Program-made: the position numbers and the translations under genes
Shown: in pieces, positions 255 through 29,274 of the stretch
How the letters are laid out: each line of letters starts with the position of its first letter
Position numbering within the stretch: the first letter of the stretch is position 1
Source: an uncultured Gammaproteobacteria bacterium
Lineage (GTDB): Bacteria; Patescibacteriota; Patescibacteriia; Magasanikbacterales; UBA922
NCBI GenBank assembly: GCA_964597575.1
Contig: CAZQXB010000001.1
Coordinates: 842,892-906,891, forward strand
DNA length: 64,000 bases
Direction of reading: 5' to 3'
The notes under the pieces: generated by a model
What the model was told of the DNA's origin: nothing
Seen by the model: the letters and a program-made list of their open reading frames with translations, nothing else
Database searches by the model: none

Positions 255-291
255 GAAGCGAGAAACGTATTTCTCGATTTATGATTTTGAG

Positions 292-2818: not shown

Positions 2819-2898
2819 CCGCTTTTGACTTTCCCCTATCCTCCAGGGCGGCCCTCTGAAACTGGTCCAGAGAGCCGCCCGTGTAGCGCTGGGGTGCG

Positions 2899-3879: not shown

Positions 3880-3885
3880 ACGTCC

Positions 3886-4851: not shown

Positions 4852-5180
4852 GGACACATCCTTTTCCCCCGACGCTGTCGGGAATTTCCGGTGGCACGAG
4901 CCACCTTGGCTCATGCCGACATATACATCGGCTGGTTTGTTTTCAGTTTCCTTCCGTGCACCGTGCACGAGGATCGTTCAAATGCTTTTTTCTCAAAGCA
5001 TCTCGACGATCCTCGCCAACGAACACAAAAAGAAACCAAATTTTATAGTATTTCAAAGTGTAATGAACAAATGGGGTTTAGCCCCATTCACCAGACTACA
5101 TGTACTCCTTTCAATGTAATCTCGTCAATGGGACCCGCGGAAGAGAATTGCTTCCGCGGTAGATGTGAAGATGAAGAAAA

Positions 5181-6794: not shown

Positions 6795-7131
6795 TCCCTC
6801 TCATCCTGCTGCATAAGGCGCAGCAATTCCTCGCCAAATCTCTTTGGCGCTTTTCTTAAAAATGTTTTCTTCAAACTTCAGTTGGATAGATCACGATTTG
6901 GAAGAGTTATTTGCGCATTGTGGGCACAAGCAACCCATAGCAAATCGACGGGTTAGAATAGCATAATTTAGCGCTTTTGTCAAGAGAAAGACCCTGTGTA
7001 TAAACGAATATTAAAAAAGGCTCTACTCAGCCACTATTTTAGAGCATTTCTTCTCTTTTTTTCCTGTATAAAAAACACCTGATTTTTCTTCAGGTATTTT
7101 TTACTTTCCTCTATTTCCTCTCCCCAACCCT

Positions 7132-10935: not shown

Positions 10936-11048
10936 GCCGAGAATCGAACTGGGGAGAGTTTGGGAACCGGAAGGTTCCCACTTTTGCTGGGGGAAGGTTC
11001 TGAAGGGGTGGAAACCTCTTCCCAAGAGGAGCGACAGCGACGAGTGAG
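10936..11048 (+). repeat. Copy 1 of a structured repeat of about 115 nt. The core is TTGGGGGAAGGTT ... GAAGGGGTGGAAACC.CTTCCC ... AGGAG ... GCGACGAGTGAG. Its first 17 nt are the reverse complement of the tmRNA T-arm.
   Basis: Three-way alignment with the copies at 28797..28917 and 61073..61190. Hairpins are maintained by compensatory changes. Confidence 0.7.
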
Positions 11049-11134
11049 CATTCCTCGGCATAGCCTACAGAACTAAAAGAATCACATAAACATGCTATGA
11101 TTCTGCTAGTCATTGTCCAAATAAATATCTTAAT

Positions 11135-11845
11135 ATGAAACAAAAAATATTGACTCCTGAAATAGATGAGCCCTGTAAAGAAATTTTAAATTCTCTTATT
11201 GCACGGGGCATGGAACTAGAATGGTGTATTGATCCGGATATAGGGGGGAAGTCGCTGGTTACCTCGGAAAATACAAATGCCACCATTACCTTCCGGAATA
11301 ACGAAGAAATTACACCGGAGAGTATTCTACACGAATTACTGCACCTAGACTTGTTTACTCGGAGCTACCGTAAAATCATCGCGAAAGAAACAGAATACGA
11401 ATACGCTATTACGATCATAAATGATCTTTTTCAACACATTCTCATGGTAGAAAAAATGGAAGAGTATGGATACTTTCTAAAGAAGACAGAAGGGGCAGCT
11501 TGCGAAAAAATGATTGAACAATTTATTTCCCTAGAGGGAGGTAAATCTTCTAATACCGCAATCGACTTGGTAGTCTTAGGCTCTGCGCTTTTGGCGAGAG
11601 CGGAGTGGGCCAATACGAACAAAACAAAAATTGAAAAATTAGTTGCACACATGAAGAAGACCGAACATTACGACGTTAATTTTATTAAATCCATAGCAGA
11701 GTCTCTTCCCTCACCCAACACAGAACGGGAGGATTATCACAAACTTCAAGCAAAATGTATAAATGGTATTAACCTAGCAAACTGTGTGAACTATACCGAG
11801 TATAACCCAACCGAAGCTAACGAGAAAAAATACTATTTTGAATAG
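11135..11845 (+). CDS. Hypothetical protein (236 aa, low GC).
   Basis: Long ORF with host-like composition. No recognisable motifs. Confidence 0.4.
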   Translation: MKQKILTPEIDEPCKEILNSLIARGMELEWCIDPDIGGKSLVTSENTNATITFRNNEEITPESILHELLHLDLFTRSYRKIIAKETEYEYAITIINDLFQHILMVEKMEEYGYFLKKTEGAACEKMIEQFISLEGGKSSNTAIDLVVLGSALLARAEWANTNKTKIEKLVAHMKKTEHYDVNFIKSIAESLPSPNTEREDYHKLQAKCINGINLANCVNYTEYNPTEANEKKYYFE

Positions 11846-11978
11846 ACACTCCAGAAAATAAACACAGCGGATTAACCAAAATTAAATTTATAAAAAAACA
11901 ATACCCCACGCCGCGCGATCGCAACGTGAGGTACTCCTCATGACCAGCCGAATGCTGGCCATGCCTGATGATGTGAGT

Positions 11979-12674
11979 TCAGGCGCCGAGAGCGATGCGC
12001 GCCCGCTCCTCGTCCGCGGCCTTCTTCGCGAGGTACGCTGCCCCATGCCCGAGGTTGGTGTTGACGGACACACCATCCCGACAGAACGGACAGTCGGCCT
12101 CGGACCACGAATCGAACTTGACCGTGTGGAGCGCGGAGAACGCAGGAAGCTCGAGCATCTCGGCGGTGATACCACCGCGATTGATGATCGCGACCGCACC
12201 GAGCACCTTGCCTCCAGCATCCCGAATGGCTTGAGCCACCTTGCGGATCGTACCGCCGGTCGTGGCCACGTCTTCGACGATGAGCACCCCCTGCCCCCGA
12301 ACCAGCTCATCGTAGCCGCGCTTCAGCGCGAAGTTGTCCGTGCCGTCGACCTTCTCCGCGAAGCCCCACTTCACCGAGTCTGCCGCCGCATTCATCCGCG
12401 TGATCTGCAGAGCCAGGGTGTACGCGAGAACCGGCGCAGCCACAGCCGCTCCGATGACGGCCTGAACGCGCTTGTCCTTCCAGGCACGGGCCGGATCACC
12501 GAACATGTCGTACAGGATCTCGGGATCCGGGTACAGCGCGTTCTTGTTGATGTAGAGATCCCCATGCTTGCCCGAGGCGTACACGAAGTGCCCGCTCGAG
12601 ATCGCACGACGCTGCTCGAGCAAGGCGGCGACTCCCACGATTTCTTCTCCTCTGAACTGACCTGAATCGACCAT
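11979..12674 (-). CDS. Type I phosphoribosyltransferase, orotate-PRTase-like, with a C-terminal Cys-containing extension.
   Basis: PRPP-binding motif VLIVEDVATTGGTI, and an N-terminal GHFVYASGKHGDLYIN resembling the OPRT hood. Strong RBS AAGGAGGA. About 62% GC, flanked by low-GC DNA. The plus-strand ORF 11940..12665 is a shadow. Confidence 0.6.
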   Translation of the reverse strand: MVDSGQFRGEEIVGVAALLEQRRAISSGHFVYASGKHGDLYINKNALYPDPEILYDMFGDPARAWKDKRVQAVIGAAVAAPVLAYTLALQITRMNAAADSVKWGFAEKVDGTDNFALKRGYDELVRGQGVLIVEDVATTGGTIRKVAQAIRDAGGKVLGAVAIINRGGITAEMLELPAFSALHTVKFDSWSEADCPFCRDGVSVNTNLGHGAAYLAKKAADEERARIALGA

Positions 12675-16078: not shown

Positions 16079-16103
16079 GAGCCCATATTTGATTCCCCTA
16101 CCT

Positions 16104-16223
16104 ATGGGCATGCGTAAAAAAATGCGAAACAAAATGAAAGCTGACTGGAAAGTCGCGAAAATTCATCGTGACAAAAATAAGCTGAAACGCCTCAAAAAGG
16201 CAGCAGCTGCAAAAGCGGCGTAA
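16104..16223 (+). CDS. Candidate small, highly basic protein of 39 aa (MGMRKKMRNKMKADWKVAKIHRDKNKLKRLKKAAAAKAA).
   Basis: It is the 3' part of track ORF 15948..16223. The longer ORF spans the second promoter and is therefore unlikely in full. The composition is ribosomal-protein-like, with a hairpin after the stop. Confidence 0.3.
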   Translation: MGMRKKMRNKMKADWKVAKIHRDKNKLKRLKKAAAAKAA

Positions 16224-16237: not shown

Positions 16238-16311
16238 GGGCTGGTAGTTCAACTGGTTAGAGCACTGCCCTGTCACGGCAGAAGTTGCGGGTTCGAACCC
16301 CGTCCAGCCCG
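16238..16311 (+). tRNA. tRNA-Asp (GTC).
   Basis: Cloverleaf folded by hand: acceptor GGGCTGG/CCAGCCC, anticodon loop CTGTCAC, T-arm GCGGGTTCGAACCCCGT, discriminator G. Confidence 0.85.
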
Positions 16312-17931
16312 CACAACGGAACGAACAGCGTCAGCATACGCTGTTTTGTTTTTGGTTGAGCCATTTTTTACAGTTATAGTGGCCGCAACCTCTTCTTTTA
16401 GGTCAATCAAAAACTGATATTGCTTTTCGGCTGAGTTGACGACTAATTTATCCTTAAGTGCGGGGTTGTAGTACAAAAATTGGAATACCTCTCTTTTCTT
16501 CTCTAAAGAGAGATTTGGATACTTATTTCTAAGCTCACAAGCAAAATCAAAATAAGCCACACACTTATCATACCAATTCAGTCTTTCCTGCTTTAACTCT
16601 ACCCGTCTTTTCAGGAGTTGGTTTCTCTCATCCACAATCCCCTTTTTTCTTCTTAAGAATTCCTCATTATCTAAAAGTAATCCATCTGTGTTATCAGGAG
16701 AAATCTTAAGTGTGACCAGATTGTCCAACTTAATCTCGCATTCCTTAATTTTTCTCTCCTGCTGCTCATCAATCTTGGTAGACACACCAACCTCCTCCTC
16801 ATTTGCCTTATTAAGCTCTTCGATTGCTAAACGCATAAAATCCTCATCTATCGCGAGCCTGCCAACCTCAACTAACACCTGCTCCTCAACTTTTTCCTCA
16901 CGGATATACGATTTACCTACACATTTCATGCACCGATAATACCTATGCCCCTTGGCCATCATGCCTGAAATAGTACCCCCGCAATCGCCGCAACTCATGA
17001 AATTACTATATGGGTAAAACGTAATCGTAGAAACAGGATGACTATTATTTTTTAAAATCTTTTGATTCTGTACAAAAACTTCCCGAGAAATAATCGGATC
17101 ATGACGATTCTCCGCTGGAAGATCCTCTGGTTCAATAATTTCACCTTTCCAACGAATAGCGCCGTAATAAAAGGGATTCTTTAGAATTCGTTCAATAGTA
17201 GCACCGCTTACCATTTTCTTTGATCTTGTAGCGGTCAACCCTAAATCAAAAGAAGCTCTCCGTAAAGCATTCATACTGTATTGACCCGTTGCGTGTAGCT
17301 CACAAGTTTTTTTTAAAATTTCAGAAATAAAAGGATCTGGCTCAATACGTTTAAGGCGTCTCCCTAGTTTCTGCAAAGCCTCCTGTTTCTCAAAAGAGTA
17401 TTGTTTGCCAGAAATTTTCCCCTCCCTGTCTATATTAAGATACCCAATAGGTGCAAAATCAGGATATTCCCCTTTCCTTAATTTTGCCTGTATATCTCGC
17501 TTAACGAAATCACTAGTGTCATCTGAACTCTTTTTAGCCATGGCAAAATGTATCTGCATCATGAACTTGTCATCTGTAGTATTCGTATAGAGCTTCTCAG
17601 GCGTCCTAATCCCCTTTATAAGCCCCTGATCCATCATATAGATGATTTGCCCGCCATCGAGGCTATTACGTGCTAAGCGCGTCAAATGATAGGTCAGAAT
17701 ACAGTTTGCTTTCCCTGACCGGATAAGCTCTAGCAACCTACCAAATTCTTCACGGCCTTCTTTATACGCACTTTTAGACTCAGCCAAAAGCTCCAACACG
17801 GTAAGCTTGTCCCGTAAGGCAATATCGCCCATTTCTTTCTTTTGTGAATCAATCGAAAGAACTTGTCGATCTTCGGAATCGGAAGACTTTCTACAGTAGG
17901 TAACATACAAGAACTCTGATGTCTTATTCAT
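16273..17931 (-). CDS. Large serine recombinase (integrase).
   Basis: N-terminal resolvase-type catalytic region (YCRKSSDSEDRQVLSIDSQ), recombinase domain, Cys-x2-Cys zinc ribbon (CGDCGG ... YYRCMKC) and coiled coil. The last 13 codons overlap tRNA-Asp. Confidence 0.8.
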   Translation of the reverse strand: MNKTSEFLYVTYCRKSSDSEDRQVLSIDSQKKEMGDIALRDKLTVLELLAESKSAYKEGREEFGRLLELIRSGKANCILTYHLTRLARNSLDGGQIIYMMDQGLIKGIRTPEKLYTNTTDDKFMMQIHFAMAKKSSDDTSDFVKRDIQAKLRKGEYPDFAPIGYLNIDREGKISGKQYSFEKQEALQKLGRRLKRIEPDPFISEILKKTCELHATGQYSMNALRRASFDLGLTATRSKKMVSGATIERILKNPFYYGAIRWKGEIIEPEDLPAENRHDPIISREVFVQNQKILKNNSHPVSTITFYPYSNFMSCGDCGGTISGMMAKGHRYYRCMKCVGKSYIREEKVEEQVLVEVGRLAIDEDFMRLAIEELNKANEEEVGVSTKIDEQQERKIKECEIKLDNLVTLKISPDNTDGLLLDNEEFLRRKKGIVDERNQLLKRRVELKQERLNWYDKCVAYFDFACELRNKYPNLSLEKKREVFQFLYYNPALKDKLVVNSAEKQYQFLIDLKEEVAATITVKNGSTKNKTAYADAVRSVVRAGRGSNPQLLP

Positions 17932-17943
17932 ACAGACAACATC

Positions 17944-18087
17944 TTACCGTTGGTTGCCATAATAAGCAATTTTAACTATCTTAATAAGACGAGAGAATGC
18001 TTCAAAGGCCTCCTGGTGTTCCAGGTGCACACCATACTTCCTTTCGTACAGTGCCATAAATTTTTGGAGGCCTTCCTCAGAGATCAT
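17944..18087 (-). CDS. Small 47-aa ORF (MISEEGLQKFMALYERKYGVHLEHQEAFEAFSRLIKIVKIAYYGNQR) immediately upstream of the recombinase. Candidate regulator or recombination directionality factor.
   Basis: Manual translation. Below the ORF-track size cutoff. Same strand as the recombinase and 12 nt from its start. Confidence 0.25.
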   Translation of the reverse strand: MISEEGLQKFMALYERKYGVHLEHQEAFEAFSRLIKIVKIAYYGNQR

Positions 18088-18194
18088 AGTAAATTACGAA
18101 ACTCTTACTTAATCGTTCTTCTGTAGTTCTACTAAAATAATGGAATTCTTATACGACCTATAAAGTTCCAAATTACGTAACCTGTACACAACAT

Positions 18195-19571
18195 TTAATA
18201 TTTGACTTGTAACCCCATGTCATCTAATTCTTTTTGGAGAGATCCCTCTCCTTTCTTTGACTCCTTAGAAATGTTCATAACATTCATATGTTCAAAATCA
18301 AAACCATACTTTTTCGCTAATTTTTCTAAATTCTCGTTTAACCCATTATCTTCTAGAACAAAACCATTCATCTTTTTTACGACCTTTAGATGAAGTTTAT
18401 TTCTTACAATTTCACCAATTTTTCGAGGGCTTAACACTGTTTCATCAGAAGAAAATAAGTGATTATAGCCCTCAGCAACACGCTTCATTGTAATTCCACG
18501 CTCATCCAGACCAACTCGGATATTAATAATTGTTTCTAATACCTGACCCTCAAAACTCATTCCACGATCATTCATTAACTCTTTACCGTATCCTCGAATC
18601 ATCTCCATGAGTTCTAGTCTTAAATTCTGATCATTAATAATACTCAGTAATGGCGCTATTATCTGATTAAGTCGTGACTCAACAGAGTGATCATAAACCG
18701 AAAGATCGATTGCTTTTTTTCCATAATTCCTTAGTCGCCACATGAGGCACTTATTTCGTATAACCGTAGCTTCCTGGTCGAAACTATCATTTAGGTTAAT
18801 CGGAACATCTCTTCTGGTTAATTTCCCATCCATACGCTCTACTAAAAATCGGCTTTCTAGAGCTTTATCCTCAAACTTATTGCGTGTCGCAACGATCTTG
18901 GGGCAAAACACATCAAATGATGCGATATCATTGGGGTTCTTTCTATCCTTGCAACGTAATATTGCTAAACCGGTCTGAAAACCATTATTAAGAATTTTTA
19001 TAATATCTACATTGGTATCACTAAAACGTAAATCAGCCTCATCTAAAATGAGGGTTCCTTTATACAAATCTATAAGACGAAAAATTGGAGCTGAAGTAGT
19101 CGCCCCCATTGTAAACATAGGTTTATAGCATACAGAACCAACTACCTTTAAAAACCGACTTTTACCGCTACCATAGTCGCCAATAGCGCGAAGATAGGGT
19201 AATTCTTTAAAAGAGTCATATGTCCAAGTCAATAGAACATAATAAGGGGCTATTTTTTCAAAAAACGAACTAATTTCTAAATACTTATGTATAAAATTCG
19301 CAATCTCATCAATAAGGTCTTTATCATTACCATATTCTGAGGGCTCTGTAGGGAATAAAATGACCTTATTCCTCACAAGATCGGCATCTGGAGGAAACGG
19401 GAAGATAACCCCTCCATTTGTTTCTACAAAATCCTTAATAACAACATCTCCATTACAATAACCAACAAATTTTGTGACTTGAGTATTGGGATCATAAATC
19501 ATCTCAAATATACCTTCATCGGTCTTAACCAATGAGGATTTTTTAGTTTTTTCTTCTAAATTCATATTCAT
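18195..19571 (-). CDS. P-loop NTPase, putative phage/plasmid replication protein (primase-helicase / VirE-like).
   Basis: Walker A GDYGSGKS and Walker B LILDEADL. Located on the integrative element. Confidence 0.45.
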   Translation of the reverse strand: MNMNLEEKTKKSSLVKTDEGIFEMIYDPNTQVTKFVGYCNGDVVIKDFVETNGGVIFPFPPDADLVRNKVILFPTEPSEYGNDKDLIDEIANFIHKYLEISSFFEKIAPYYVLLTWTYDSFKELPYLRAIGDYGSGKSRFLKVVGSVCYKPMFTMGATTSAPIFRLIDLYKGTLILDEADLRFSDTNVDIIKILNNGFQTGLAILRCKDRKNPNDIASFDVFCPKIVATRNKFEDKALESRFLVERMDGKLTRRDVPINLNDSFDQEATVIRNKCLMWRLRNYGKKAIDLSVYDHSVESRLNQIIAPLLSIINDQNLRLELMEMIRGYGKELMNDRGMSFEGQVLETIINIRVGLDERGITMKRVAEGYNHLFSSDETVLSPRKIGEIVRNKLHLKVVKKMNGFVLEDNGLNENLEKLAKKYGFDFEHMNVMNISKESKKGEGSLQKELDDMGLQVKY

Positions 19572-19596
19572 TGCATTAAAAGTGTGTAAACCGAAA

Positions 19597-19848
19597 TTAG
19601 CGACGTTTAAAAATTGCCTGAGCAGTACGAATACCTTCTATCATGTCATGGGCATACACCTTTAACTTTTTTGAAAGTAGCTGGGTTAATATGCGTTTAC
19701 ATTTCCCTTGATCCTCAAAACGAAAAAAAACGGTTCCTCGCTCGGCCACTTCATATCCATCAACCACACAACCAGCACTTAGTAAAACGTAGATTTCAAA
19801 ACGATCTTTAGTTACATAAAATGGTACGTAATCTATTTTCATATACAT
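19597..19848 (-). CDS. Hypothetical small protein (83 aa).
   Basis: ORF on the element upstream of the NTPase gene. A perfect 22-nt palindrome (19908-19929) follows the upstream gene. Confidence 0.3.
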   Translation of the reverse strand: MYMKIDYVPFYVTKDRFEIYVLLSAGCVVDGYEVAERGTVFFRFEDQGKCKRILTQLLSKKLKVYAHDMIEGIRTAQAIFKRR

Positions 19849-19937
19849 TAAATTAAAAAAATAAACTGCTTATGATCGCAGTTTATCAAATGGTATTTAT
19901 TGTTATACCCTCGTCGAATGCAGCTGCATTCGACGTA

Positions 19938-20645
19938 TCACCTAAACTTAGCCTTGACTCTTCCTAAATTAGACTTTACGCTATTTGGCGTAACATTTTT
20001 ATAGCCCCATTCTTTCAAGATAGCAGCAATAACCTGATTTTTATACCTGTATTTTTTACTTTTATCTTTTAATAATTGAGGGAGAAAATTGATTGAACAT
20101 TCATTAAGTCTAACACACGCCATGACTAAATTTTTATCTTTGAAAGGGGAGATTCTTTTTAACGGGCTATACACTGCACACCGTTTTATTTCAGATTTTA
20201 TATTCTTCCAATTACTTTTAATATACTGCAAAACATCATCCCTAGATGCCATTTCAGGAATTATTAGTTTTACATATGACTGGCCGTTTTCAATCACTCC
20301 ATCTCTGGAAGGCAATTCAATCAAAAAACCAACACTTGATACTTTTTCTTTAATTTTATCAAAATAATCTCCGAGTATTATGTAATTTTTAAGCAAACTT
20401 AAAAAATTTGGAGTCTGTGGTATTTTGTATTTTTTTAGAATTTCTCTTTCTTTAAGTTGAAATTCAGATAAACTGATAGTAGTTTTCTCGAGTGAAGATA
20501 GATATCTTTTGTAATGATCTTGACTGGAAAATCCCCCTATCGGGATATTAAAAATTAAACGAAATAAGTGTATATCCTCCAAAAACTCCTTATTGAAAAT
20601 GAGAGAGTAGAACAGTTCTTTAGCCTTATTAGTCTCGTTTTTCAT
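19938..20645 (-). CDS. Hypothetical protein (235 aa).
   Basis: AT-rich ORF on the element. Confidence 0.35.
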   Translation of the reverse strand: MKNETNKAKELFYSLIFNKEFLEDIHLFRLIFNIPIGGFSSQDHYKRYLSSLEKTTISLSEFQLKEREILKKYKIPQTPNFLSLLKNYIILGDYFDKIKEKVSSVGFLIELPSRDGVIENGQSYVKLIIPEMASRDDVLQYIKSNWKNIKSEIKRCAVYSPLKRISPFKDKNLVMACVRLNECSINFLPQLLKDKSKKYRYKNQVIAAILKEWGYKNVTPNSVKSNLGRVKAKFR

Positions 20646-20926
20646 AACATATTCATATAATTTTATAAGCTAAATATACACCTTTTTCTTATTTTGATAT
20701 ATCGATAAGACTTGAAGAATAACTCTGGATAAGGTAATCTAAATTCAACAATTCAAGCCTAAACTCAATAGTCCCCCTATTGGGCATGGCACATAAACTA
20801 CACAAATATAGAGATGGCTATGCCGTCTTTGGTATTATTTGTGTAGTCAGTAGTCGAAAGGCTACTGGGCCCCTAACGGGGTCGCCAAAGCAACGGATAG
20901 CCTTTTTTGTTATCTATTTTAGAAAT

Positions 20927-21613
20927 ATGGCAAAATACGAATCTATTGAGGATCTAAAAATAAAGTGGTGGTACCGACTTTTTCAGGTAATACTTACTTG
21001 TTTCTATCTAGCATCTTTAGCGTATGGAATTGGCTTAGTAGTGATTGAAATGGTGCAACCAAATTATGTACTTGATAGACAAAATTCAACCGTTACCTGT
21101 AAATATGGGACAAAAAAATCTTATTCCTTTTTTGAAGGAAATGTTTACGAACCAGTCTTCCCTTCTGACATTCAAAGATTATGTAATGGGAATGGTAACC
21201 AAGAGATAGTAGACCGAGTAAAGGAAATGCGTGACGCAAAATTTGATGATAAGAAAATTTTATCTTTATTCTACGAAGCAAGTGAGCAAGACTGGAGGGA
21301 TTATGTAGACGAAGCAGGAAAAAGTAGTAGCCCCACAGAAATAGTAAATAGTTTTGTTTTAGATAGTCTTATTTTAAGTGAAATTGATGCACAAAAAGTC
21401 CTAAATGACCCCAGAGAAATATACGTATCCGTACATACAGTATTTAAGGCTGATAAAAGTCCTTGGGATTTAATGTGGGCAAAAATTGGATACTCTGTAT
21501 TAACTATTCTTGGTATAAGCACTGTATTTGAAATTATTAGAAGCGTTTTTAATTACATCATTGCAGGGAAATACTTTCCTCTCAAATTTATGAATATTTT
21601 TAATAAGAAATAA
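20927..21613 (+). CDS. Hypothetical membrane protein with two TM segments.
   Basis: Start moved to MAKYES. Hydrophobic helices (VILTCFYLASLAYGIGLVVI; YSVLTILGISTVF). Confidence 0.35.
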   Translation: MAKYESIEDLKIKWWYRLFQVILTCFYLASLAYGIGLVVIEMVQPNYVLDRQNSTVTCKYGTKKSYSFFEGNVYEPVFPSDIQRLCNGNGNQEIVDRVKEMRDAKFDDKKILSLFYEASEQDWRDYVDEAGKSSSPTEIVNSFVLDSLILSEIDAQKVLNDPREIYVSVHTVFKADKSPWDLMWAKIGYSVLTILGISTVFEIIRSVFNYIIAGKYFPLKFMNIFNKK

Positions 21614-21616
21614 TGT

Positions 21617-22846
21617 ATGAGAAAAATTATATTACTGGCGATTTTAGCGGTATCGTTTATTCCAATGGTAACACATGCAAGTTTTGACGCTAGCCTTAGA
21701 TACGGAGCAAAAGGTAAAGCCGTAACTGAGCTTCAGGAATTTCTTGCTCAACAAAAACTATATTCAGGACCTATTACAGGAAATTTTTATAGCATGACCC
21801 TTAAGGCGGTTACAGCTTTCCAAAAGCAAGAAAAGCTTCCCTCAACTGGTTATGTGGGCCCACTTACACGTGAAAAGATGAAACTCTACACTAAAGAAAA
21901 AATGAATATACAAGAATCCGAGAAACCGATACCACCCGCAGATATTCCTTACATAAGCTTTCCTACCAACGCACAAATAATCACAAAAACCGATGATCAA
22001 ACAAAAATTCTGCAGGATCAATTAACTAAACAACAAGCACAGAACGATTTATTAAAGAGACAGATTGAATACCAGAAGCATACACAAAGAAAGATAGAAG
22101 AAAGCTTAAATAAGATAGAACAAAATACCAGATCAATACCCACCCTAAACGCACCTCCTGTTCAACCGCCTCCATCTGTTACTCTAAAAGCTTTCGCACC
22201 AAATAAAAACGGAAAGGTACTGACAATAAAATCAACTGAAAAAATAACAATTGATATTAATATTGGTAATCCTAACGCAAATAACCTAAACCCAGGGTAT
22301 ACCTGCATCAAATTCGGTGATTGGCAAGGTCAAATTGTTCCGGTTGATCACAATGAGTCTAGTGCGCAGGATAGCAACTTAGACTTTTCAAAGTTGATTA
22401 CTGGAGGAAATAAAACATTTGGAGTAACCTGTTCTAATTCAGCAGGTAGCAAAACTGATTCAGTAACAATAGATATTGAACCATTGCCCGTAGTAGCTAA
22501 AAAAGTTCCGACGGACTTAAAGGTTGTCAAAAGTTCTGATTTTGCATATTCCCTAGAGAATCTGGGTGTATTTACAGAGATCCTCCAGTATTCTGTGGAT
22601 TACGAAGTATATCTTGTTGATAAGGATGGCAATAATTATCCAGAATTTGCAAACACAATAATTAGTGTGAATGCACCTGATCGCGATAGAATGACCGCCT
22701 ATCAGCTTACCACTTTGAAACCACCACTTTCGGCTAGCGGTATGGATGGGGTGACATTTCACTACACACCAAGAACAAAAGGGCTACAAACCATAACATT
22801 CTTTACGGATAGTTTCACCAAATCAATAGTCTTGGAAGTGAGGTAA
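21617..22846 (+). CDS. Secreted protein with an N-terminal peptidoglycan-binding-like domain and a coiled-coil/Gln-rich region.
   Basis: Signal peptide. PG_binding_1-like segment (GAKGKAVTELQEFLAQQKLYSGPITGNFYSMTLKAVTAFQKQEKLPSTGYVGPLT). Confidence 0.5.
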   Translation: MRKIILLAILAVSFIPMVTHASFDASLRYGAKGKAVTELQEFLAQQKLYSGPITGNFYSMTLKAVTAFQKQEKLPSTGYVGPLTREKMKLYTKEKMNIQESEKPIPPADIPYISFPTNAQIITKTDDQTKILQDQLTKQQAQNDLLKRQIEYQKHTQRKIEESLNKIEQNTRSIPTLNAPPVQPPPSVTLKAFAPNKNGKVLTIKSTEKITIDINIGNPNANNLNPGYTCIKFGDWQGQIVPVDHNESSAQDSNLDFSKLITGGNKTFGVTCSNSAGSKTDSVTIDIEPLPVVAKKVPTDLKVVKSSDFAYSLENLGVFTEILQYSVDYEVYLVDKDGNNYPEFANTIISVNAPDRDRMTAYQLTTLKPPLSASGMDGVTFHYTPRTKGLQTITFFTDSFTKSIVLEVR

Positions 22847-22995
22847 TACACCCTTCTTTTAGAATGGTGAGTAAACAGGTAAATGTAGGAAGTAAAAATT
22901 TCAAAAAATAGGAATTACGAACGGAAAATTTCCCTAAACGATTCAAATATATTGCTAATTTAAGCCATTTTTTGATATTTAAATATCTTTTCTAC

Positions 22996-23024
22996 TTGAC
23001 CAAAACAAGTGAATAACGTAATAT
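22996..23024 (+). promoter_or_regulatory. Promoter: TTGACC, 17-nt spacer, TAATAT, upstream of the hicB/hicA pair.
   Basis: Read directly. Confidence 0.45.
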
Positions 23025-23082
23025 ATACCATTACAAAGATCGGATAAGATGGTATTATATCTGTATAAATAAACTTAAGCCT

Positions 23083-23391
23083 ATGCTTAACAAATTGTTT
23101 CGTACAATTTTTCCAGCAATGAGTCCCGCGGATATCGTTAAGCAGTACCATATCCCGTCAAAAATCAAATTTAATTTTCAAACAAAAGACGGATGGACTG
23201 TTGCTACTTCTGAGGACTTGCCAGGTTTCGTTACTGAGGCGCGTAATGATCGAGAGTTGTTAGAAATGATTAACGACGGTATTTTAACGTACTTTGATGT
23301 TCCCCGTCGTGCTGGTGACACCCTCCACGGAAAGCTAGTTACTGAGGGGCACGGAATCATATCCTTGAATGAACAGCCTCAAACAGTTTAA
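23083..23391 (+). CDS. hicB: HicB-like antitoxin (N-terminal HicB fold).
   Basis: KIKFNFQTKDGWTVATSEDLPGFVTEARNDRELLEMINDGILTYFD matches the HicB N-domain pattern. It is followed 5 nt later by hicA. Confidence 0.55.
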   Translation: MLNKLFRTIFPAMSPADIVKQYHIPSKIKFNFQTKDGWTVATSEDLPGFVTEARNDRELLEMINDGILTYFDVPRRAGDTLHGKLVTEGHGIISLNEQPQTV

Positions 23392-23396
23392 CTGCT

Positions 23397-23636
23397 ATGG
23401 GCGAATTTACATTTAACCGTCGGGAGTGTATACGAGCATTAGTGAAGTTGGGTTTTTACCTCGATAATAAGCGCTCAGGTAAACACGATAAGTATAAAGC
23501 ACCGTTTAGTAATGCCAACCCGCCATTTATCATGGTTCCTAGACACAATGAGATTCATTGTCAGGATGCAATCATAAAGGAACTGGAAAAAATGGGCGGG
23601 AAAGAATTAGTCGAAAAATTTAAGCACTATTTATAA
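23397..23636 (+). CDS. hicA: HicA toxin (YcfA-like, mRNA interferase).
   Basis: RRECIRALVKLGF ... SGKHDKYK ... IMVPRHNEIHCQDAIIKELEKMG aligns with E. coli HicA (RRWLESQGV ... GSNHLKL ... VMPRHPCDEIKEPLRKAILKQLGL). Confidence 0.75.
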   Translation: MGEFTFNRRECIRALVKLGFYLDNKRSGKHDKYKAPFSNANPPFIMVPRHNEIHCQDAIIKELEKMGGKELVEKFKHYL

Positions 23637-23643
23637 AAAGCCT

Positions 23644-24360
23644 CTAGGAAGGCTTTTTATAAATACTAATCTCACGCTGGCGCATATCTAAAAAGTCGAG
23701 GACTTCTTTGATTTCAGTCTCATTTAAGACTCTCAATCCTCGTTTTATTAACCAAGGAGCAAAACTCCGCCCACCAATCCAGACCCCCTGAACAGGTCGT
23801 TTAATAACCACTCTTGCATGAGGAAATAGAAGAAGGCTGGTGACAGGATAATCCCTGCCAGTCTTTTCTTTTAGTAAGTTCTCTACATAATGGGCCTCAG
23901 CTTTGGCTTGGCCTATAAAATCTCTTTCTGTTTCTTGACCGTTAATTAAAATTCTATTTTCTAGATTTGTAACCACACCCCTCATGGCCTTTACTTCGAT
24001 CGTAAAAATACCAGTTTCTCCGACACAAATATAATCAATGTTCCCACGTCCTGTGTCATAATCAGGCAGTAGCTTATAGGAAGGAGTCAGAGTTTCTAAC
24101 ACACTACCCATCACCCACTCTGCTCCAGTCCCTCTACCCCAAGTGAAATAATTAAGCCTTCTCAGATCACTCAAGATATCTGCAAAAACACCAAATAAAA
24201 AGACGACAAGAAAAATAAATGGAATTGAATATTTACCTGAAAAATTTGCCCCAATGTAAAGAAGGAAAAGCGTATATAAAACTCCACATAAAATTACCAA
24301 CTGAATACGGTTCTTATTCCTTTTATACGTCGTGTACGTATACGAATCCCTGTTATCCAT
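23644..24360 (-). CDS. NERD (nuclease-related domain) protein with two N-terminal TM helices.
   Basis: NIDYICVGETGIFTIEVKAMRG matches the NERD core (IDhvlI..GIFVIExK). Confidence 0.55.
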   Translation of the reverse strand: MDNRDSYTYTTYKRNKNRIQLVILCGVLYTLFLLYIGANFSGKYSIPFIFLVVFLFGVFADILSDLRRLNYFTWGRGTGAEWVMGSVLETLTPSYKLLPDYDTGRGNIDYICVGETGIFTIEVKAMRGVVTNLENRILINGQETERDFIGQAKAEAHYVENLLKEKTGRDYPVTSLLLFPHARVVIKRPVQGVWIGGRSFAPWLIKRGLRVLNETEIKEVLDFLDMRQREISIYKKPS

Positions 24361-24427
24361 ATAAAGGGGCTTGATTTTGATAATAACAGCGATATGATAC
24401 CATTTTAGGCCTTATGGATACATATAT

Positions 24428-25558
24428 ATGCCATCTACAGAACTATATGTTTTCAAATACACCAGAAAACCAGAATACTACAGTGATCTCTATGACAAAG
24501 GGACTATTGCGGAGTGTAAGTATTACCTGGATGCGTTTACCATAGACCCTAAAAAACTCTCAGAACCCCTTAAGGAAGAAAATGGGGAAGAAATGACTCC
24601 TGAGAAAAGGCAGGCACTCTATAAGTCGTTTGCAGACTTGAGCCTGTACTTCACTCGGGGTGAGCGTTATATGGCCAAGGACAAAACGATTAAAGAGTGG
24701 ATGGATAGAGATCGCAAACTAGATGAGAGATTAGCAAGAGTAACCATTAAAACAAGGTATTGTGATCGATGCGGCCAAACCATGGATTGTATAGATAAAA
24801 GCTATCAGGGGGCAAATAACGAGCGAATTATCGTAATGTACATGTGCCCCGACTGTAAAAGAGCACGGGCCTTTTATGATAATGGTGAGGAATATGATCC
24901 AGAGAGTAAGTGTAAAAAATGTTATAGTACAAATACTAGTAAATCCATACGAAACGGGAGGACTATCACTATTACAGACACCTGTGATAATTGTGGAAAC
25001 GTAGAAGTAGATGACATAACACTTAGCGAAGAAAAACAACCGGATAAGGCACAGGAAGAAAAGGAACGCCGTCAGTTTATCGCTGATCGTGAGAAGTATT
25101 GTATTGATGACCAAAAAGGAGGTGAATATATAAGCTTCAAAGAAGGTTTAAAAACAATGGAAGAAATAGCCAATAAGCACAAAGAAAAAGAGAATAATAA
25201 GGCTCTCTACGACGAAGTGGCCAAAGTACAAAAACTCAATGTTGCACAACTGAAACAACTACTCTCCCCTGCCCTAGAGAAAGAAAAGTACACTGCCCTT
25301 GAATTTAGTAACCCTGAAATGAAACGAGGGGTTATTGTTAGTTTTACTGTTCAAGAAAATGATACTGACCGCAAAGAATATGACAGTAAACATGGCTTAC
25401 GTAAATTGATTGACGCCACCCTCCTCAATACCAACTGGCGTTTGATGTCAGATGGTATTTATACTAGACTTGGAGTACTTTCTGGTAGACTTAAAGGGGT
25501 GGAATCTGAAGAGGAAATTGCTAATTTGATTAAAAAGGATAGACTAAAAAATCTATGA
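24428..25558 (+). CDS. Hypothetical protein with four CxxC zinc-ribbon motifs and Lys/Glu-rich coiled-coil regions.
   Basis: CDRCGQ ... CPDCKR ... CKKCYS ... CDNCGN. Confidence 0.4.
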   Translation: MPSTELYVFKYTRKPEYYSDLYDKGTIAECKYYLDAFTIDPKKLSEPLKEENGEEMTPEKRQALYKSFADLSLYFTRGERYMAKDKTIKEWMDRDRKLDERLARVTIKTRYCDRCGQTMDCIDKSYQGANNERIIVMYMCPDCKRARAFYDNGEEYDPESKCKKCYSTNTSKSIRNGRTITITDTCDNCGNVEVDDITLSEEKQPDKAQEEKERRQFIADREKYCIDDQKGGEYISFKEGLKTMEEIANKHKEKENNKALYDEVAKVQKLNVAQLKQLLSPALEKEKYTALEFSNPEMKRGVIVSFTVQENDTDRKEYDSKHGLRKLIDATLLNTNWRLMSDGIYTRLGVLSGRLKGVESEEEIANLIKKDRLKNL

Positions 25559-26034
25559 ACCATACTCAGCTACAGGATGAATCAGAAATAGCGTGTGTCT
25601 CTAGGTTTATCGAGACATACAATGTTACACATGGTACAAATTTTACACTCATCCAAAAAAATCCCATTCAAAACGAGGTGGACATTTTTTGCATAGATGA
25701 ATCTAATGGTACAAAAATTCAGGTACAAGTTAAAAAATCAGATCCTACGATGGCAGGTGATGTGGGTAAACTTCGGGGAGTTCCTTCTGCAAAGAAAAAT
25801 CAAATTCACAGACATAGTACGGGAATTTTAGAAAATGTTATAAACAATATAAACAATGTTGAAAACAAATATAAAGAACAAAACAAAAATATGTCGAAAA
25901 TAATATTATTACTTGATGATCTCGGAGATCCTCCTGATTTTATACTACACCAGACTAAAGAAAAAATTCCAAAAAATTCGTTTAAGGAGATATGGATGAC
26001 AAGAAGGCGACAAAGTCCCTATAGGCTATACTAA
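25555..26034 (+). CDS. Hypothetical protein (159 aa), translationally coupled to the zinc-ribbon protein by a 4-nt overlap.
   Basis: ORF and overlap read directly. Confidence 0.35.
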   Translation: MNHTQLQDESEIACVSRFIETYNVTHGTNFTLIQKNPIQNEVDIFCIDESNGTKIQVQVKKSDPTMAGDVGKLRGVPSAKKNQIHRHSTGILENVINNINNVENKYKEQNKNMSKIILLLDDLGDPPDFILHQTKEKIPKNSFKEIWMTRRRQSPYRLY

Positions 26035-26050
26035 AGGTAAAATATTAGTA

Positions 26051-26788
26051 TCAAATTGAATCTTTACTTTTTAGATATGTTTTTACTGATAGTTCTCTTT
26101 TTAATTCTAAATAAATTTTTTTATGAAGGATTTCTAAGTCCTTATGGGTGATAGCAAAATTATCTGTAAAAGAGAGTTTATTATATTTTTTATTTACTTC
26201 ACAAATTGAACCAAGAATAACTCTGGCAATCTCAGCTATAAAAAATAGATTCGTCCTCACTGTTTTTTCATCCCATTCGTCAAAAAAAGTCATACCGACC
26301 TTTCCATCCATTTTAAAATTTTGAAATGCATTACTAGCATTCGAATGCGAAAAGTTATCGTTCATATAGTCTTTTAATCTTTTTATTTGGCTACTTGCTT
26401 CAGGAAAGTTTAAAAATAACCACTTATACGCATCATCTTTTAGTTTTTTACTTCTAAAAAAGTCAGTCTTCTTATTCTTTTCTTCTGTAAAAACCTTAAC
26501 ATCGAATGACAGTAAATACAGAGCAATCGCCGCAGCTTCAAGCACCTGCCTTAAACACATAAATGATTGAACTTGATGTTTTCTTATAGAAGACAAAAAT
26601 GCAAGTCCTAAATGTTTTTGTATTTGAGAATAAAAAACAAAAAAGAAAAAACCGTCATGGTTTATAGGAGAAAAAGGTGTAGATAGAAATTCAAGCCATT
26701 GATAGGCATTATCATAAAACAGCCCGTTCTCCTGTTGTGCAATATCAGTAAGTCTGTTTTCAATTTCTATTATTTCTTCAAAATTCAT
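26051..26788 (-). CDS. Hypothetical protein (245 aa), downstream partner of the DUF4238-like gene with a 4-nt overlap.
   Basis: ORF and overlap read directly. Confidence 0.4.
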   Translation of the reverse strand: MNFEEIIEIENRLTDIAQQENGLFYDNAYQWLEFLSTPFSPINHDGFFFFVFYSQIQKHLGLAFLSSIRKHQVQSFMCLRQVLEAAAIALYLLSFDVKVFTEEKNKKTDFFRSKKLKDDAYKWLFLNFPEASSQIKRLKDYMNDNFSHSNASNAFQNFKMDGKVGMTFFDEWDEKTVRTNLFFIAEIARVILGSICEVNKKYNKLSFTDNFAITHKDLEILHKKIYLELKRELSVKTYLKSKDSI

Positions 26789-27774
26789 AACGGATAATTG
26801 TCAGGGCTTACTAAAGACAAAAAACGAAGCATTCGATCCAATTTTGTCATCGGCTTTTTTTTGATCTGTTCCTCAAATTCTTCTCGACGAGCCCCATAAG
26901 CTTCTTTCATCGAAAGATTGAGCCGTAAAGTGTTTATATCAAATACTTTTTTATCGTCAGCCCATTTTCTTTTCAACCTTTTACGAGAATGAGGGTAGAT
27001 AAACTCTATAACTACCTTTGGACCGAGGGCAAAATAATGTGTTCTCTCAAGGAAAGACGCACCATAAAAACCTGTTCTCTCTGGAATAAACTCAACAACT
27101 GGTGTATCAGAAGTAAAAAAATCAGACTCCCCTTTGGCGATATGAACCATCCAATTTTTTCCGTAGAATAGGTTGGCAAACCCCCTCATCTCACCTAACA
27201 AATTCAAATGGCTCGCGTTATTGAACTCTAAGCCATACTCTTCATTAATGAGCATTTGCTTATACGAATCTACATCTTCCAAGGAAATCTCTCTTTCACC
27301 GAGAGAGTCTACTTTTTCTTTCAGATCACTGGAGAATGTCTCCTGGCTCGCCCTGAATTTCATGCTGTGTTTATAGAACTCTTCATCCATTCTCTTTATC
27401 TGCCCCCTCATGTAACCTCCTCTCAAATAGAGCATGGAGGCAAGAGTGGCAATGGTATATCTTTCGCTTTCTGTAACAGACTCATAATGAAGTAGCTTTT
27501 GATAAATACCGTCTAATTTACCAGAGATGTCATCTTCGATCTGCCTAAAAAGCTCCTCTATAATCTGACTCACGTCATCGGGCACACCTGTGGTAACTGC
27601 ATAATAAAATTTTTCATAACAAACGCTAGCATAAGGTCTGAATGGCTCAATTCTTACTTTTTTGATATTCAAAACACTAACAAACCCCCTTTCATTGGCG
27701 AAACGTTTTGTGTAAAACTTTGGTACAAAGTGCTGCTTCTCTGTAATTGGCTTTTTAGCACTTATATTTGACAT
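26785..27774 (-). CDS. DUF4238-like protein.
   Basis: N-terminus KQHFVPKFYTKRF fits the H-[FY]-[VI]-P-x-F-[YL] start motif I associate with DUF4238. Located on the integrative element. Confidence 0.45.
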   Translation of the reverse strand: MSNISAKKPITEKQHFVPKFYTKRFANERGFVSVLNIKKVRIEPFRPYASVCYEKFYYAVTTGVPDDVSQIIEELFRQIEDDISGKLDGIYQKLLHYESVTESERYTIATLASMLYLRGGYMRGQIKRMDEEFYKHSMKFRASQETFSSDLKEKVDSLGEREISLEDVDSYKQMLINEEYGLEFNNASHLNLLGEMRGFANLFYGKNWMVHIAKGESDFFTSDTPVVEFIPERTGFYGASFLERTHYFALGPKVVIEFIYPHSRKRLKRKWADDKKVFDINTLRLNLSMKEAYGARREEFEEQIKKKPMTKLDRMLRFLSLVSPDNYPL

Positions 27775-27803
27775 ACCATACGGGCGACATAATAAAACAG
27801 AAA

Positions 27804-28127
27804 CTAGATAACGTCTTTATCTCGTGTGCAAAACATCTCCATAGGTAAATCCCCTTTATCAGGATACTGGGCAGTCATCCTATACTCTAAAATATTCTTT
27901 AAAGCAGAAATATCATTAAAAATTTTTGAAGCTTGTGCACCACATACACTTTTCGGCACATACTTACCTATAACCTTGCGAACCTGCCAATAACGCGTCT
28001 GTAAAGCTTTGAGTTCTGTGGCCATCTCCTTCCAATTCTCTATTGTGGGTTTTTCATATTTTGTCATAAGATATCTGTTATTTATAAAAATTTTTATAAG
28101 GTAAAAGTAGTATCTCACATAGTACAA
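27804..28127 (-). CDS. Hypothetical small protein (107 aa).
   Basis: ORF only. Confidence 0.3.
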   Translation of the reverse strand: MYYVRYYFYLIKIFINNRYLMTKYEKPTIENWKEMATELKALQTRYWQVRKVIGKYVPKSVCGAQASKIFNDISALKNILEYRMTAQYPDKGDLPMEMFCTRDKDVI

Positions 28128-28796
28128 TAATCTGCTGGATGCCTGTGGTTAACTTTAAACGGGGCCACGTACAGCGAATTTTATGGCTAAAATTTTGACT
28201 GAGATAATCATAGCTCATACAACATCTTCCATTTGACCGCATGTAAACCCTGAGCCAGACAGTGTGAGCTGTTAAATTAAAGCGAAAAATAGCCACATTA
28301 TTATAGGAAAAATGAAAATTTGGTTTACAAAAAATCGCTAAATAATCCATTTTTATGCTTTTATACGTTGATTTTCTCTTTATTTTTGTATACATTTTTG
28401 ATTGTAACTTACAGTCTAGTTTTTGCGGGCGATAAATTCAACTCAAACACCCCCGCTTTTTCACGCAAAAACTGTGCAATAATTATTAATTACTTATAAA
28501 AAGTAGCGGAAATTATAGTGTTTTAATAGCTTAATTTAGCTTTTTTTTACAAAGTACAAGCTTAAGTTAATTTTTGCACCATTATTGCGAGTTATCTAAT
28601 TACTTTTTATATACTAAATTAATTAATAATTAATACAAAAAATGAATGTATGAACATTATGAATGTTATAAAGATAATTTGGGTACACAGAAATAGCCTT
28701 GTAACTGAGCAAAGAAAGTTATAATCCCCTCCCGTCGGTTCCGCTACATAAAAAGGAACCTCTCCATAGGGGTTCCTTTTTATGTAGTTGTGTTTT

Positions 28797-28917
28797 GATA
28801 GGATTTCGAACCGAAAGGGTTTGGGAAAACTGCTTGGCGGTTTTCTTAACCTTAGTTGGGGGAAGGTTGGGAAGGGGTGGAAACCCTTTCCCAGGAGGAG
28901 GGGCAGCGACGAGTGAG
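28797..28917 (+). repeat. Copy 2 of the structured repeat. It begins with a TTCGAACC T-loop-like end (GGATTTCGAACCGAAAGGG).
   Basis: Alignment with copies 1 and 3. It lies just right of the integrative element and a long hairpin (CTACATAAAAAGGAACC ... GGTTCCTTTTTATGTAG). Confidence 0.65.
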
Positions 28918-29274
28918 AAAAAAACCGTACACACTTTTGTGTGTACAGCCCCAGAGAGTCCATAGTCGGCGCTGCACAGCGCCATATCGCGGGTGGCGTC
29001 GAGAGGTGGACCACCGGCGGTGGACTCATCGTCGAAGCCGTCGACGACCACATATATCAAGGACCACCATATACACATGGTACGTGATGCAAATCCCATC
29101 CATGATCCAACATATCGCCCAGAGGATGGTTTCTGCCATGACCCTCCTTCTCTACTCTCGACAAGCGTCTAGAATAGAGAAGGGTTTGCTATCAGAACGT
29201 ATTCAAGTTTCTCCACCTTCTTTTTTGAGGTATACTACATGTACACTTTCTTAATAAATTCCCTCAAAAAAAAT

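Follow-up and report, generated by a model that had tools for sequence, protein, structure and literature searches.

The 64,000-nt stretch of DNA analyzed here (the window; positions 842,892 to 906,891 of contig CAZQXB010000001.1 in assembly GCA_964597575.1, labeled as an uncultured Gammaproteobacteria bacterium and placed by GTDB in Patescibacteriota; Patescibacteriia; Magasanikbacterales; UBA922) carries a 12,432-bp integrative element (16313-28744) directly 3' of a tRNA-Asp gene. Its sequence and that of its relatives suggest that the element was inserted by its own large serine recombinase (LSR) at the exact 3' end of the tRNA gene, between the tRNA and its native terminator. The attachment site of the element (attP) would lie inside the 3' end of the integrase open reading frame (ORF), crossover would take place within the tetranucleotide CCGC, and the left arm of the host site (attB) would be the acceptor and T-arm of the tRNA. 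Upon integration, the tRNA would stay wholly host encoded and the element would supply only what follows it, i.e., C/CA and a new terminator (the P' arm), while the native terminator and the repeat behind it would be displaced by 12.4 kb. The integrated integrase ORF would run into the complement of the tRNA, and the tail of a 565-aa protein would be replaced to give 552 aa; in the excised circle, the minus strand of the P arm would code for part of the integrase's tail. The remaining genes would be variable cargo, including a toxin-antitoxin pair, a NERD protein, a DUF4238 protein, a peptidoglycan (PG)-binding protein, and a LOOT RNA. We assign this anatomy and insertion mechanism a probability of roughly 0.85; the anatomy, boundaries, attachment arms, and empty site are those indicated by sequence comparison.

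Boundaries, attachment sites, and empty site

The host tRNA-Asp(gtc) gene (16238-16311/12, plus strand) was called by ARAGORN, scored 65.8 bits against Rfam, and is near-identical in the two empty-site relatives described below. Comparison of the left (attL) and right (attR) attachment sites places the element at 16313-28744, and the only sequence common to the two sites is the core CCGC, at 16309-16312 (plus strand) in attL and at 28741-28744 in attR. The initial annotation had recognized an integrative element of about 12.5 kb and given it the limits 16238-28790; the element is real, and its proper limits exclude the tRNA, the hairpin at 28744-28787, and the repeat, which are host DNA. GC content is 0.358 within the element versus 0.467 in the left flank and 0.475 in the right flank, a real drop, the value being 0.358 instead of the approximately 33% first reported. 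The attachment sites are short, and no long direct repeats flank the element. A second copy of the tRNA 3' end was not found in the window (3 mismatches in 27 nt allowed), nor was a displaced tRNA 3' fragment found at the far end of the element. With a core of only CCGC, no second copy of the tRNA 3' end, and unintegrated forms without a tRNA (see below), the earlier proposal of a tRNA 3' end contributed by the element does not hold. The logic is instead reversed: codons pass from the tRNA gene to the integrase, and no tRNA 3' end comes from the element.

The P' arm of the element (16313-16356, plus strand) lies inside the integrase coding sequence and is the predicted replacement terminator for tRNA-Asp. 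It starts directly past the core, with a hairpin at 16323-16346 followed by a T-run to 16356, and a terminator scan marked terminator-like sites at 16323-16346 and 28743-28788. Compensatory changes preserve the P' hairpin in three related loci (L001-L003), and its opposite strand codes for a low-conservation stretch of the integrase (..KNKTAYADAV..). The P arm, AGTTATAATCCCCTCCCGTCGGTTCCGC (28717-28744, plus strand), has a single match within the window and ends in the attR core. Next to it lies the displaced native terminator of tRNA-Asp (28744-28787, plus strand; the B' arm of the host), which was marked by the terminator scan and has a homologous hairpin in the empty-site relative L097. This hairpin had been taken for a perfect one marking the right end; with 20-nt arms and one G-U position, it is near-perfect and is situated just outside the element. 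It is followed, as the initial annotation had noted, by copy 2 of a tRNA-linked repeat (28800-28918, plus strand), which is also found past tRNA-Asp in L097.

These arms predict an attB junction of ...GTCCAGCCCGC joined to TACATAAAAAGG (longer form, GGTTCGAACCCCGTCCAGCCCGC joined to TACATAAAAAGGAACCTCTCC) and an attP junction of ...CGTCGGTTCCGC joined to ACAACGGAACG (longer form, AGTTATAATCCCCTCCCGTCGGTTCCGC joined to ACAACGGAACGAACAGCGTCAGC). The crossover within CCGC corresponds to tRNA positions 71-73 plus one base, and most likely occurs at CC because this is the only non-palindromic dinucleotide in the core. The 10 related attL/attR pairs have a CCGC or CCCGC core, sometimes with 1-3 additional bases, so that cores span 4-7 nt. 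In each of the 11 tRNA (B) arms, the motif GTTnnA coincides with the T-loop and starts 22 nt from the end of the core, compared with 27 nt in 9 of the 12 P arms. Rutherford et al. (2013; PMC3783163) showed for serine integrases that attB has the zinc-ribbon-domain motif 5 bp nearer the center than attP does, and the left half-sites here show exactly that 5-bp offset. The T-loop GTTCGA may thus represent the outer (zinc-ribbon-domain) motif of attB, lying 5 bp nearer the core than GTTATAAT does in attP. A GTTCCG/CGGAAC symmetry in the attP of the window was also considered and was dropped because it is not conserved in other elements.

Genomes lacking the element, a comparison that the initial annotation had proposed, were found among the closest relatives identified by an IF3 homologue search. 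The first (L097; GCA_013558295.1, IF3 70% identical) has no element, and the order of its features is rplT, a basic ORF of approximately 39 aa, tRNA-Asp, CCGC, a terminator hairpin, and the tRNA-linked repeat. This is exactly the ancestral layout (tRNA-Asp, terminator, repeat) that had been predicted from the window. When the attB of the window was rebuilt by joining 16312 to 28745, its identity to L097 was 75% to the left of the junction and 59% to the right, the latter value being 38% for the uninterrupted window. The second relative (L096; GCA_964406115.1, IF3 72% identical) is likewise without the element, has host-like GC content, and is syntenic on both sides (infC-rplT-tRNA-Asp on the left; GH1-PPDK-PK on the right). 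The 35 nt past its tRNA-Asp (L096 3105-3140) resemble the P' terminator (AACAGCGTCAttATgCGCTG; AACAGCGTCA..CGCTGTTTT) and are unlike the native terminator type of the window and L097. Exact-protein look-ups retrieved only two contigs (L047 and L046), and the exact L20 sequence was not on record; the exact 43-nt tRNA-Asp 3' half had no match among the searched genome contigs. Metagenome orthologues of the right-flank SH3 protein (40-55% identity) had no tRNA-Asp or rplT nearby, and their lost synteny makes them uninformative on the empty site.

The integrase, its tail, and its relatives

The LSR gene is located at 16273-17931 on the minus strand and encodes 552 aa in the integrated form, as assigned by Pfam, alignment, and PDB matches. 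Three LSR domains exceed the Pfam cut-offs, i.e., Resolvase (PF00239; 60.7 bits), Recombinase (PF07508; 45.1 bits), and Zn_ribbon_recom (PF13408; 27.7 bits), and these, together with the tRNA call and the empty-site relatives, bear out the initial call of an LSR-encoding element at tRNA-Asp. Residues Y12, R14, S16, Q23, C314, C317, C334, and C337 are invariant in an alignment of 15 sequences, S16 being the catalytic serine, and the protein matches PDB entry 3g13, with YCRKSS aligned to YCRVST of that structure. The presence of the catalytic serine and the resolvase fold, on which the original call depended, is thus supported by the invariant S16, PF00239, and 3g13. We used an AlphaFold2 model of a homologue (P0034) that is 47% identical to the window LSR. 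The model is confident to approximately residue 520 (mean predicted local distance difference test score [pLDDT], 81) and has helices at 364-466, and residues 521-568 have scores of <50 and appear to be disordered. The model matches the full-length SPbeta, PhiC31, and Bxb1 integrase-DNA cryo-electron microscopy structures (Foldseek E values, 1e-20 to 1e-14) at a sequence identity to solved LSRs of 12-19%. The enzyme is an LSR by every criterion that sequence analysis can assess.

The LSR ORF overlaps 39 nt of the tRNA-Asp gene, corresponding to 12 sense codons (RAGRGSNPQLLP) and the stop codon, which agrees with the 13 codons on the tRNA complement counted in the initial annotation. The stop (TGA) is complementary to the TCA of the anticodon loop. 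As read from the sequence, the complement of the host tRNA supplies the last 11-12 codons of the LSR plus its stop. The integrated form (552 aa) ends in ..VVRAGRGSNPQLLP, with the tail ...VVR-AGRGSNPQLLP running to the anticodon-loop TGA, and the joined arms predict a 565-aa excised form ending in ..VVRNRREGIITFFAQLQGYFCVPKLSL, with the tail ...VVR-NRREGIITFFAQLQGYFCVPKLSL. A real protein, P0034, has an excised tail of the predicted type (...VVDKIITFF...), matching the predictions for two other loci (L056 and L002), and the predicted excised tails and P0034 share R-x-x-V-x-x-I-I-T-[FY]-F-x4-G-Y-[YF]-x-[IV]-P-K. Because the P0034 tail scores as disordered, the exchanged part would be a flexible C-terminal extension and not the folded enzyme.

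Selection on the tail was estimated by a crude count of nonsynonymous relative to synonymous differences (pN/pS) on five excised-form tails, i.e., a small sample and a rough method. Codons 1-10, which lie within the att half-site, have a pN/pS of 1.04 (pS, 0.28), and we read this as constraint acting on the DNA itself. Codons 11-22 (31-66 nt from the core) have a pN/pS of 0.31 (pS, 0.91), all four codons are used for a conserved proline, and synonymous sites are saturated; these values suggest purifying selection on the protein, i.e., a tail that is translated and selected. Together, the two tails suggest an integration-dependent tail swap. That the swap acts as a functional switch is a tentative idea, to which we give less credence than doubt. 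Similarly speculative is a two-form integrase in which the state of the DNA sets the form, only the excised circle encodes the peptide IITFF....GY[YF]x[IV]PK on a disordered linker, and the clade reads the T-loop. If this were true, the lost peptide would be a built-in switch for direction or stability that might, for example, be required for synapsis of attP with attB or target the protein for turnover, and a whole Patescibacteria serine integrase clade would recognize the near-universal tRNA T-loop.

The closest LSR homologues are ≤63% identical, with Patescibacteria or Peribacter as the origin wherever a source name is given. In each of the first three genomic contexts that were fetched, the LSR gene stops 40-42 nt inside an antisense tRNA-Asp gene. 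Of 51 loci, 31 have an LSR ORF with its stop codon inside an antisense tRNA (mostly tRNA-Asp, and also tRNA-Asn, tRNA-His, and tRNA-Trp), and tRNA-Gln adjoins the LSR in three more. Among the best 120 homologues, 53 have the full tRNA-complement tail ([DG]SN plus five residues) and approximately 17 have a shorter tail. The genome titles are mostly of Patescibacteria or Candidate Phyla Radiation (CPR) type, i.e., Patescibacteria group, Buchananbacteria, Moranbacteria, Falkowbacteria, Peregrinibacteria/Peribacteria, Saccharibacteria, and Wirthbacteria; about a dozen metagenome-assembled genomes have another phylum label or none, including a few Planctomycetes. Judged from these sequences, the tRNA overlap is a trait of the LSR family, a design common to dozens of related elements. 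The related integrases occupy unrelated genomic neighborhoods with differing cargo, and element sizes range from 5.7 to 10.7 kb where both junctions could be measured. Ten integrated relatives (L002, L003, L005, L051, L056, L061, L062, L063, L087, and L089) have far-end arms of the form ..GTTATAATC..TCCAC....CCCGC, with the host terminator hairpin directly after. From host to host the acceptor stems vary, each of them pairing with the 5' strand of its own host.

Two related contigs, L004 (P0007) and L094 (P0034), represent putative unintegrated forms in which P is joined directly to P'; the L094 junction is AAAAAAGTTATAATCTTGTCCACAACGCCCCGC joined to CTAGTAGACAAACCATCGCTTAAAGCGTTGG. Both have element-type genes on either side of the integrase, their LSRs are without a tRNA-type tail, and ARAGORN found no tRNA gene on either contig. 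Their att sites hold only the T-loop-like GTTATAAT/GTTCGAAAAT motif, and the P arms do not fold into a T-arm plus acceptor strand when inspected by eye. Because P joins P' in these contigs, attP is placed inside the 3' end of the integrase ORF, without a tRNA 3' half.

Several relatives show variations of their own. In L005 (P0029), the element (~2620 to ~11650) lies away from any tRNA and adjoins ..GGCCCCGCC..; its integrase ORF reads on into host DNA to give a 602-aa product. This insertion looks like the use of a secondary site. The same element contains an S-adenosylmethionine (SAM) riboswitch (63.4 bits; L005 7287-7395, minus strand) upstream of a 142-aa ORF. In L089 (Falkowbacteria), the integrase ORF is interrupted in frame by a stop codon close to its 3' end, and the 13 nt that follow the attR core are identical to the P' arm (CCGCACTAGTAAA), which suggests a decaying element or a tandem remnant. 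An extra tyrosine recombinase gene (Phage_integrase) occurs just upstream of the serine integrase module in L002 (8639-9718) and L003 (8581-9696). Three relatives carry S49/SDH-type (ClpP-like) serine proteases (L002 3994-4992, L004 2450-3523, and L053 3077-3904), a type of cargo that the window element does not have.

Partner genes, cargo, and flanking DNA

A 47-aa ORF (17944-18087, minus strand), 12 nt upstream of the integrase, had been noted in the initial annotation and proved to be a real, conserved partner: copies with 51-76% identity were located immediately upstream of the LSR in 15 related loci, including the unintegrated L004, and a 47-aa ORF was also called at the same position in L094. 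It is the only other gene conserved with the integrase. It has no Pfam match, and its family profile gave a short match to a LOTUS/OST-HTH domain (5yad; E value, 5.6e-4; 17 residues). Its product is a candidate directionality factor or regulator.

The next gene (18195-19571, minus strand) encodes a 458-aa P-loop protein with a Walker A motif (GSGKS) recognized by eye. Neither the protein nor any of its 1529 homologues has a Pfam match, and the homologues with a source name are from Patescibacteria. Homologues occur in two other elements (L079 and L066), and the fusion of some homologues to Prim-Pol and NrS-1 HBD domains speaks for a function in replication; the protein is probably a replication helicase that would replicate the excised circle. 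Two ORFs (83 aa and 235 aa; 19597-20645, minus strand) form the head of this minus-strand operon.

A LOOT RNA (RF03000; 20756-20883, plus strand) scored 78.6 bits against a cut-off of 46.4 bits; it is situated in a divergent intergenic region and leads the plus-strand operon. LOOT RNAs were found in three tRNA-Asp elements, i.e., those of the window, L053 (5628-5747, minus strand), and L052 (5930-6048, minus strand), in every case encoded opposite to the integrase, 3-4 kb upstream of that gene and heading an operon on its own strand. In the window and L053, the RNA lies in a divergent intergenic region, and the downstream genes are not conserved. Rfam types LOOT merely as a small RNA; its occurrence here suggests an RNA carried by mobile elements.

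The cargo listed in the initial annotation was recovered for the most part, PG_binding_1, HicA, NERD, and DUF4238 exceeding the Pfam cut-offs. The plus-strand operon begins with a 228-aa membrane-like protein and a 409-aa PG-binding protein with a signal-peptide-like N terminus (20927-22846); the latter scored 51.5 bits for PG_binding_1, and its matches to PHROGs endolysin families cover the PG-binding domain only. A hicB-like and hicA toxin-antitoxin pair follows (23083-23636, plus strand), with HicA_toxin at 33.3 bits and the HicB-like ORF (DUF1902) at 21.7 bits, just below the 22-bit cut-off. The NERD-domain protein (PF08378; 45.6 bits) is encoded at 23644-24360 on the minus strand. Two overlapping ORFs at 24428-26034 (plus strand), of which one encodes a 376-aa protein that has four CxxC pairs and the other 159 aa, gave only weak zinc-ribbon matches. 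The DUF4238 protein (PF14022, 108.4 bits; 329 aa) and an overlapping 245-aa partner are encoded at 26051-27774 (minus strand); a homologue of the partner occurs in L087, and the module had no PADLOC match. The last segment (27804-28716) contains a 107-aa ORF (minus strand) and then approximately 600 bp of AT-rich non-coding DNA with inverted repeats, possibly an origin. No defense system or virion family was assigned to the cargo by PADLOC or PHROGs. Specifically, the PHROGs search gave no capsid, portal, terminase, or tail match in the window element, no relative of the integrase family was found in IMG/VR, and no PF00589 tyrosine recombinase is present among the ORFs of the window element.

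The flanking host DNA has features of its own. The tRNA-linked repeat is present in three copies in the window (10936-11054, plus strand; 28800-28918, plus strand; 61068-61180, minus strand), identified with a 28-nt pattern for which 0 chance matches are expected, and in L097 (11742-11870). It is approximately 115-130 nt long and lies 3' of the terminators of transfer-messenger RNA (tmRNA), tRNA-Asp (at the ancestral site), and tRNA-Ile, its positions after tmRNA and tRNA-Ile having been described correctly at the outset. Every copy opens with an inverted copy of a tRNA T-arm and contains conserved hairpins. RNAalifold indicated five compensatory pairs in three copies, too few to judge, and Rfam gave no credible match even at a permissive threshold; the repeat could be an unannotated small RNA gene or a repetitive extragenic palindromic (REP)-like element. 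The basic ORF of approximately 39 aa (MRKK.RNKMKA.WK..KI.RDK.KLKR...) lies directly upstream of tRNA-Asp in the window (16102-16223, plus strand), L096 (2895-3011), and L097 (11495-11614), and may be an unannotated small protein gene. The first 7,000 nt of the window (1-7000) have a GC content of 0.605 versus approximately 0.47 in the rest, with long overlapping ORFs on both strands; this DNA may be foreign or unusual in some other way. Directly behind the repeat copy linked to tmRNA, a low-GC ORF (11135-11845) is followed by a stretch of 57% GC that carries a 231-aa ORF (11979-12674, minus strand); the region 11135-12674 may be a further insertion, at tmRNA.

Alternative explanations and comparison with known systems

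If crossover had instead taken place inside the tRNA (in the anticodon or T-arm), a tRNA-Asp 3' half carried by the element would have replaced that of the host, as in tyrosine-integrase islands. The overlap of the integrase ORF with the 3' 39 nt of the tRNA and the T-loop-like GTTATAAT or GTTCGAAAAT motif in the P arm fit such an exchange, but attL and attR share only CCGC and the window has no second tRNA 3' end. In addition, the attP forms L004 and L094 have no ARAGORN tRNA and their P arms are not T-arm-like by eye, acceptor stems are host specific and pair with the host 5' strand, and the empty site of L097 is a complete tRNA followed by CCGC and the terminator, all of which makes this exchange highly improbable. 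Practically no credence can be given to the idea that there was no insertion and that the low-GC block is ancestral host DNA of odd composition. A same-species empty site is absent, and nothing further favors this idea; L096 is syntenic on both sides without the block, L097 has an uninterrupted tRNA, terminator, and repeat, and related integrases are found in unrelated neighborhoods with different cargo.

Two further alternatives accept the insertion. The element may be a fixed, immobile remnant whose integrase is intact but idle, whose P' terminator has been adopted by the host, and whose tail swap is a functionless by-product of a compact attP. Consistent with this, evidence of excision is lacking in the contigs from the source sample (L046 and L047), L096 seems to retain only a P'-like terminator after loss of its element, the integrase ORF of L089 is disrupted, and disorder extends over the final 48 residues of the family model. 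We nevertheless think this unlikely, as the integrase ORF of the window is full length with all invariant residues, both att arms fit the family consensus, the 47-aa partner ORF is present at its conserved position, and the distal part of the excised-form tail has a pN/pS of 0.31 with saturated synonymous sites. Catalysis and mobility at the present day are inferences, as are the functions suggested here for the tail, the 47-aa protein, and the P-loop protein. An origin as a small temperate phage or phage satellite, as opposed to a plasmid-like integrative element, appears improbable. L002, L004, and L053 carry S49/SDH-type (ClpP-like) proteases, which are often linked to capsid maturation in PHROGs-style annotation, and the PG-binding protein matches endolysin families. 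However, these endolysin matches are limited to the PG-binding domain, the window element has no capsid, terminase, portal, or tail families in PHROGs, no integrase relative is found in IMG/VR, and 5.7-12.4 kb is too small for a tailed phage.

The reading that we favor is insertion by the element's own LSR at the 3' end of tRNA-Asp, and several observations weigh against it. Contigs L004 and L094 are linear without terminal overlap, and their unintegrated state is deduced from their content. The L096 site is probably the scar of a lost element with a retained terminator and not a clean attB. The Logan contigs of the source sample show either the integrated junction (L047) or a break inside the repeat (L046), and neither excision nor an empty site was seen in this organism. 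Comparison of the sites places the crossover within CCGC without fixing its dinucleotide, and the right half-sites (P' and B') are A-rich, with no clear symmetric motif that could be defined there. Finally, no transfer or virion genes were found in the element.

If the favored reading is correct, its significance is as follows. Serine integrases are major genome-engineering tools, and tRNA 3' ends are an unusual target for the class; here, a large clade, mostly of Patescibacteria/CPR type, targets tRNA 3' ends and appears to read the T-loop, an indication that most genomes already contain natural landing sites. A recombination site and a tRNA terminator within the integrase frame would be a new twist on self-regulating integration. 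The family also defines small integrative elements (5.7-12.4 kb) of Patescibacteria, a group in which mobile elements have received little description, and gives a genomic context to the orphan LOOT RNA.

The element resembles phage-type serine integrase systems (PhiC31, Bxb1, A118/LI, SPbeta SprA, and TP901-1) in the domain order of its integrase (catalytic, recombinase, and zinc-ribbon domains with a long coiled coil), its short att sites that share few bases and have the outer motif 5 bp nearer the center in attB, and a small separate protein that is the likely directionality factor. Unlike those systems, it targets a tRNA 3' end, its attP lies within the integrase coding sequence, the C-terminal tail is exchanged, and the P' arm doubles as the terminator of the target tRNA. 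The staphylococcal cassette chromosome SCCmec encodes LSRs (CcrAB) that target the extreme 3' end of rlmH (orfX), a housekeeping gene that is not inactivated by the insertion. SCCmec differs from the present element in its protein-coding target, an attP outside the recombinase ORF, and the use of two recombinases. Cluster G mycobacteriophages (BPs), in an account by Broussard et al. from 2013, reportedly show integration-dependent immunity, with attP inside a coding sequence and state-dependent C termini. In BPs, the remodeled gene is that of the repressor and the integrase is a tyrosine recombinase; here, the remodeled gene is the serine integrase's own, and the regulatory consequence is putative.

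In the published surveys consulted, tRNA targets belong to tyrosine integrases. As in P4-type islands and the pSAM2-type integrative and conjugative elements of actinomycetes (AICEs; PMC2440964), the insertion is at a tRNA 3' end and the integrase gene adjoins the tRNA in antisense orientation, and, like pSAM2 (10.9 kb; PMC2440964), these elements are small (about 6-12 kb) and carry a putative replication gene. Unlike tyrosine-integrase islands, the element has an unrelated recombinase family and no tRNA direct repeat, and only the terminator, not the tRNA, is rebuilt. SSV1-type archaeal integrases (PMC8371274) likewise have attP within their own ORF and a tRNA gene as the target; SSV-type integration, however, splits the tyrosine integrase gene in two, whereas here approximately 25 disordered C-terminal residues would be exchanged and the folded enzyme would stay intact. 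On its sequence, the element is thus neither a tRNA-restoring tyrosine-integrase island nor a prophage, and the nearest conceptual parallels, by analogy, would be the integration-dependent immunity of BPs and the SSV-type integrase partition, both of which involve tyrosine recombinases. In the literature, of which our coverage is incomplete, we found no published tRNA-targeting serine integrase in CPR bacteria and no attP in a serine integrase ORF. The element thus appears to depart from the described serine integrases in three respects: a tRNA 3'-end target, an attP and a terminator within the integrase ORF, and a state-dependent C terminus.

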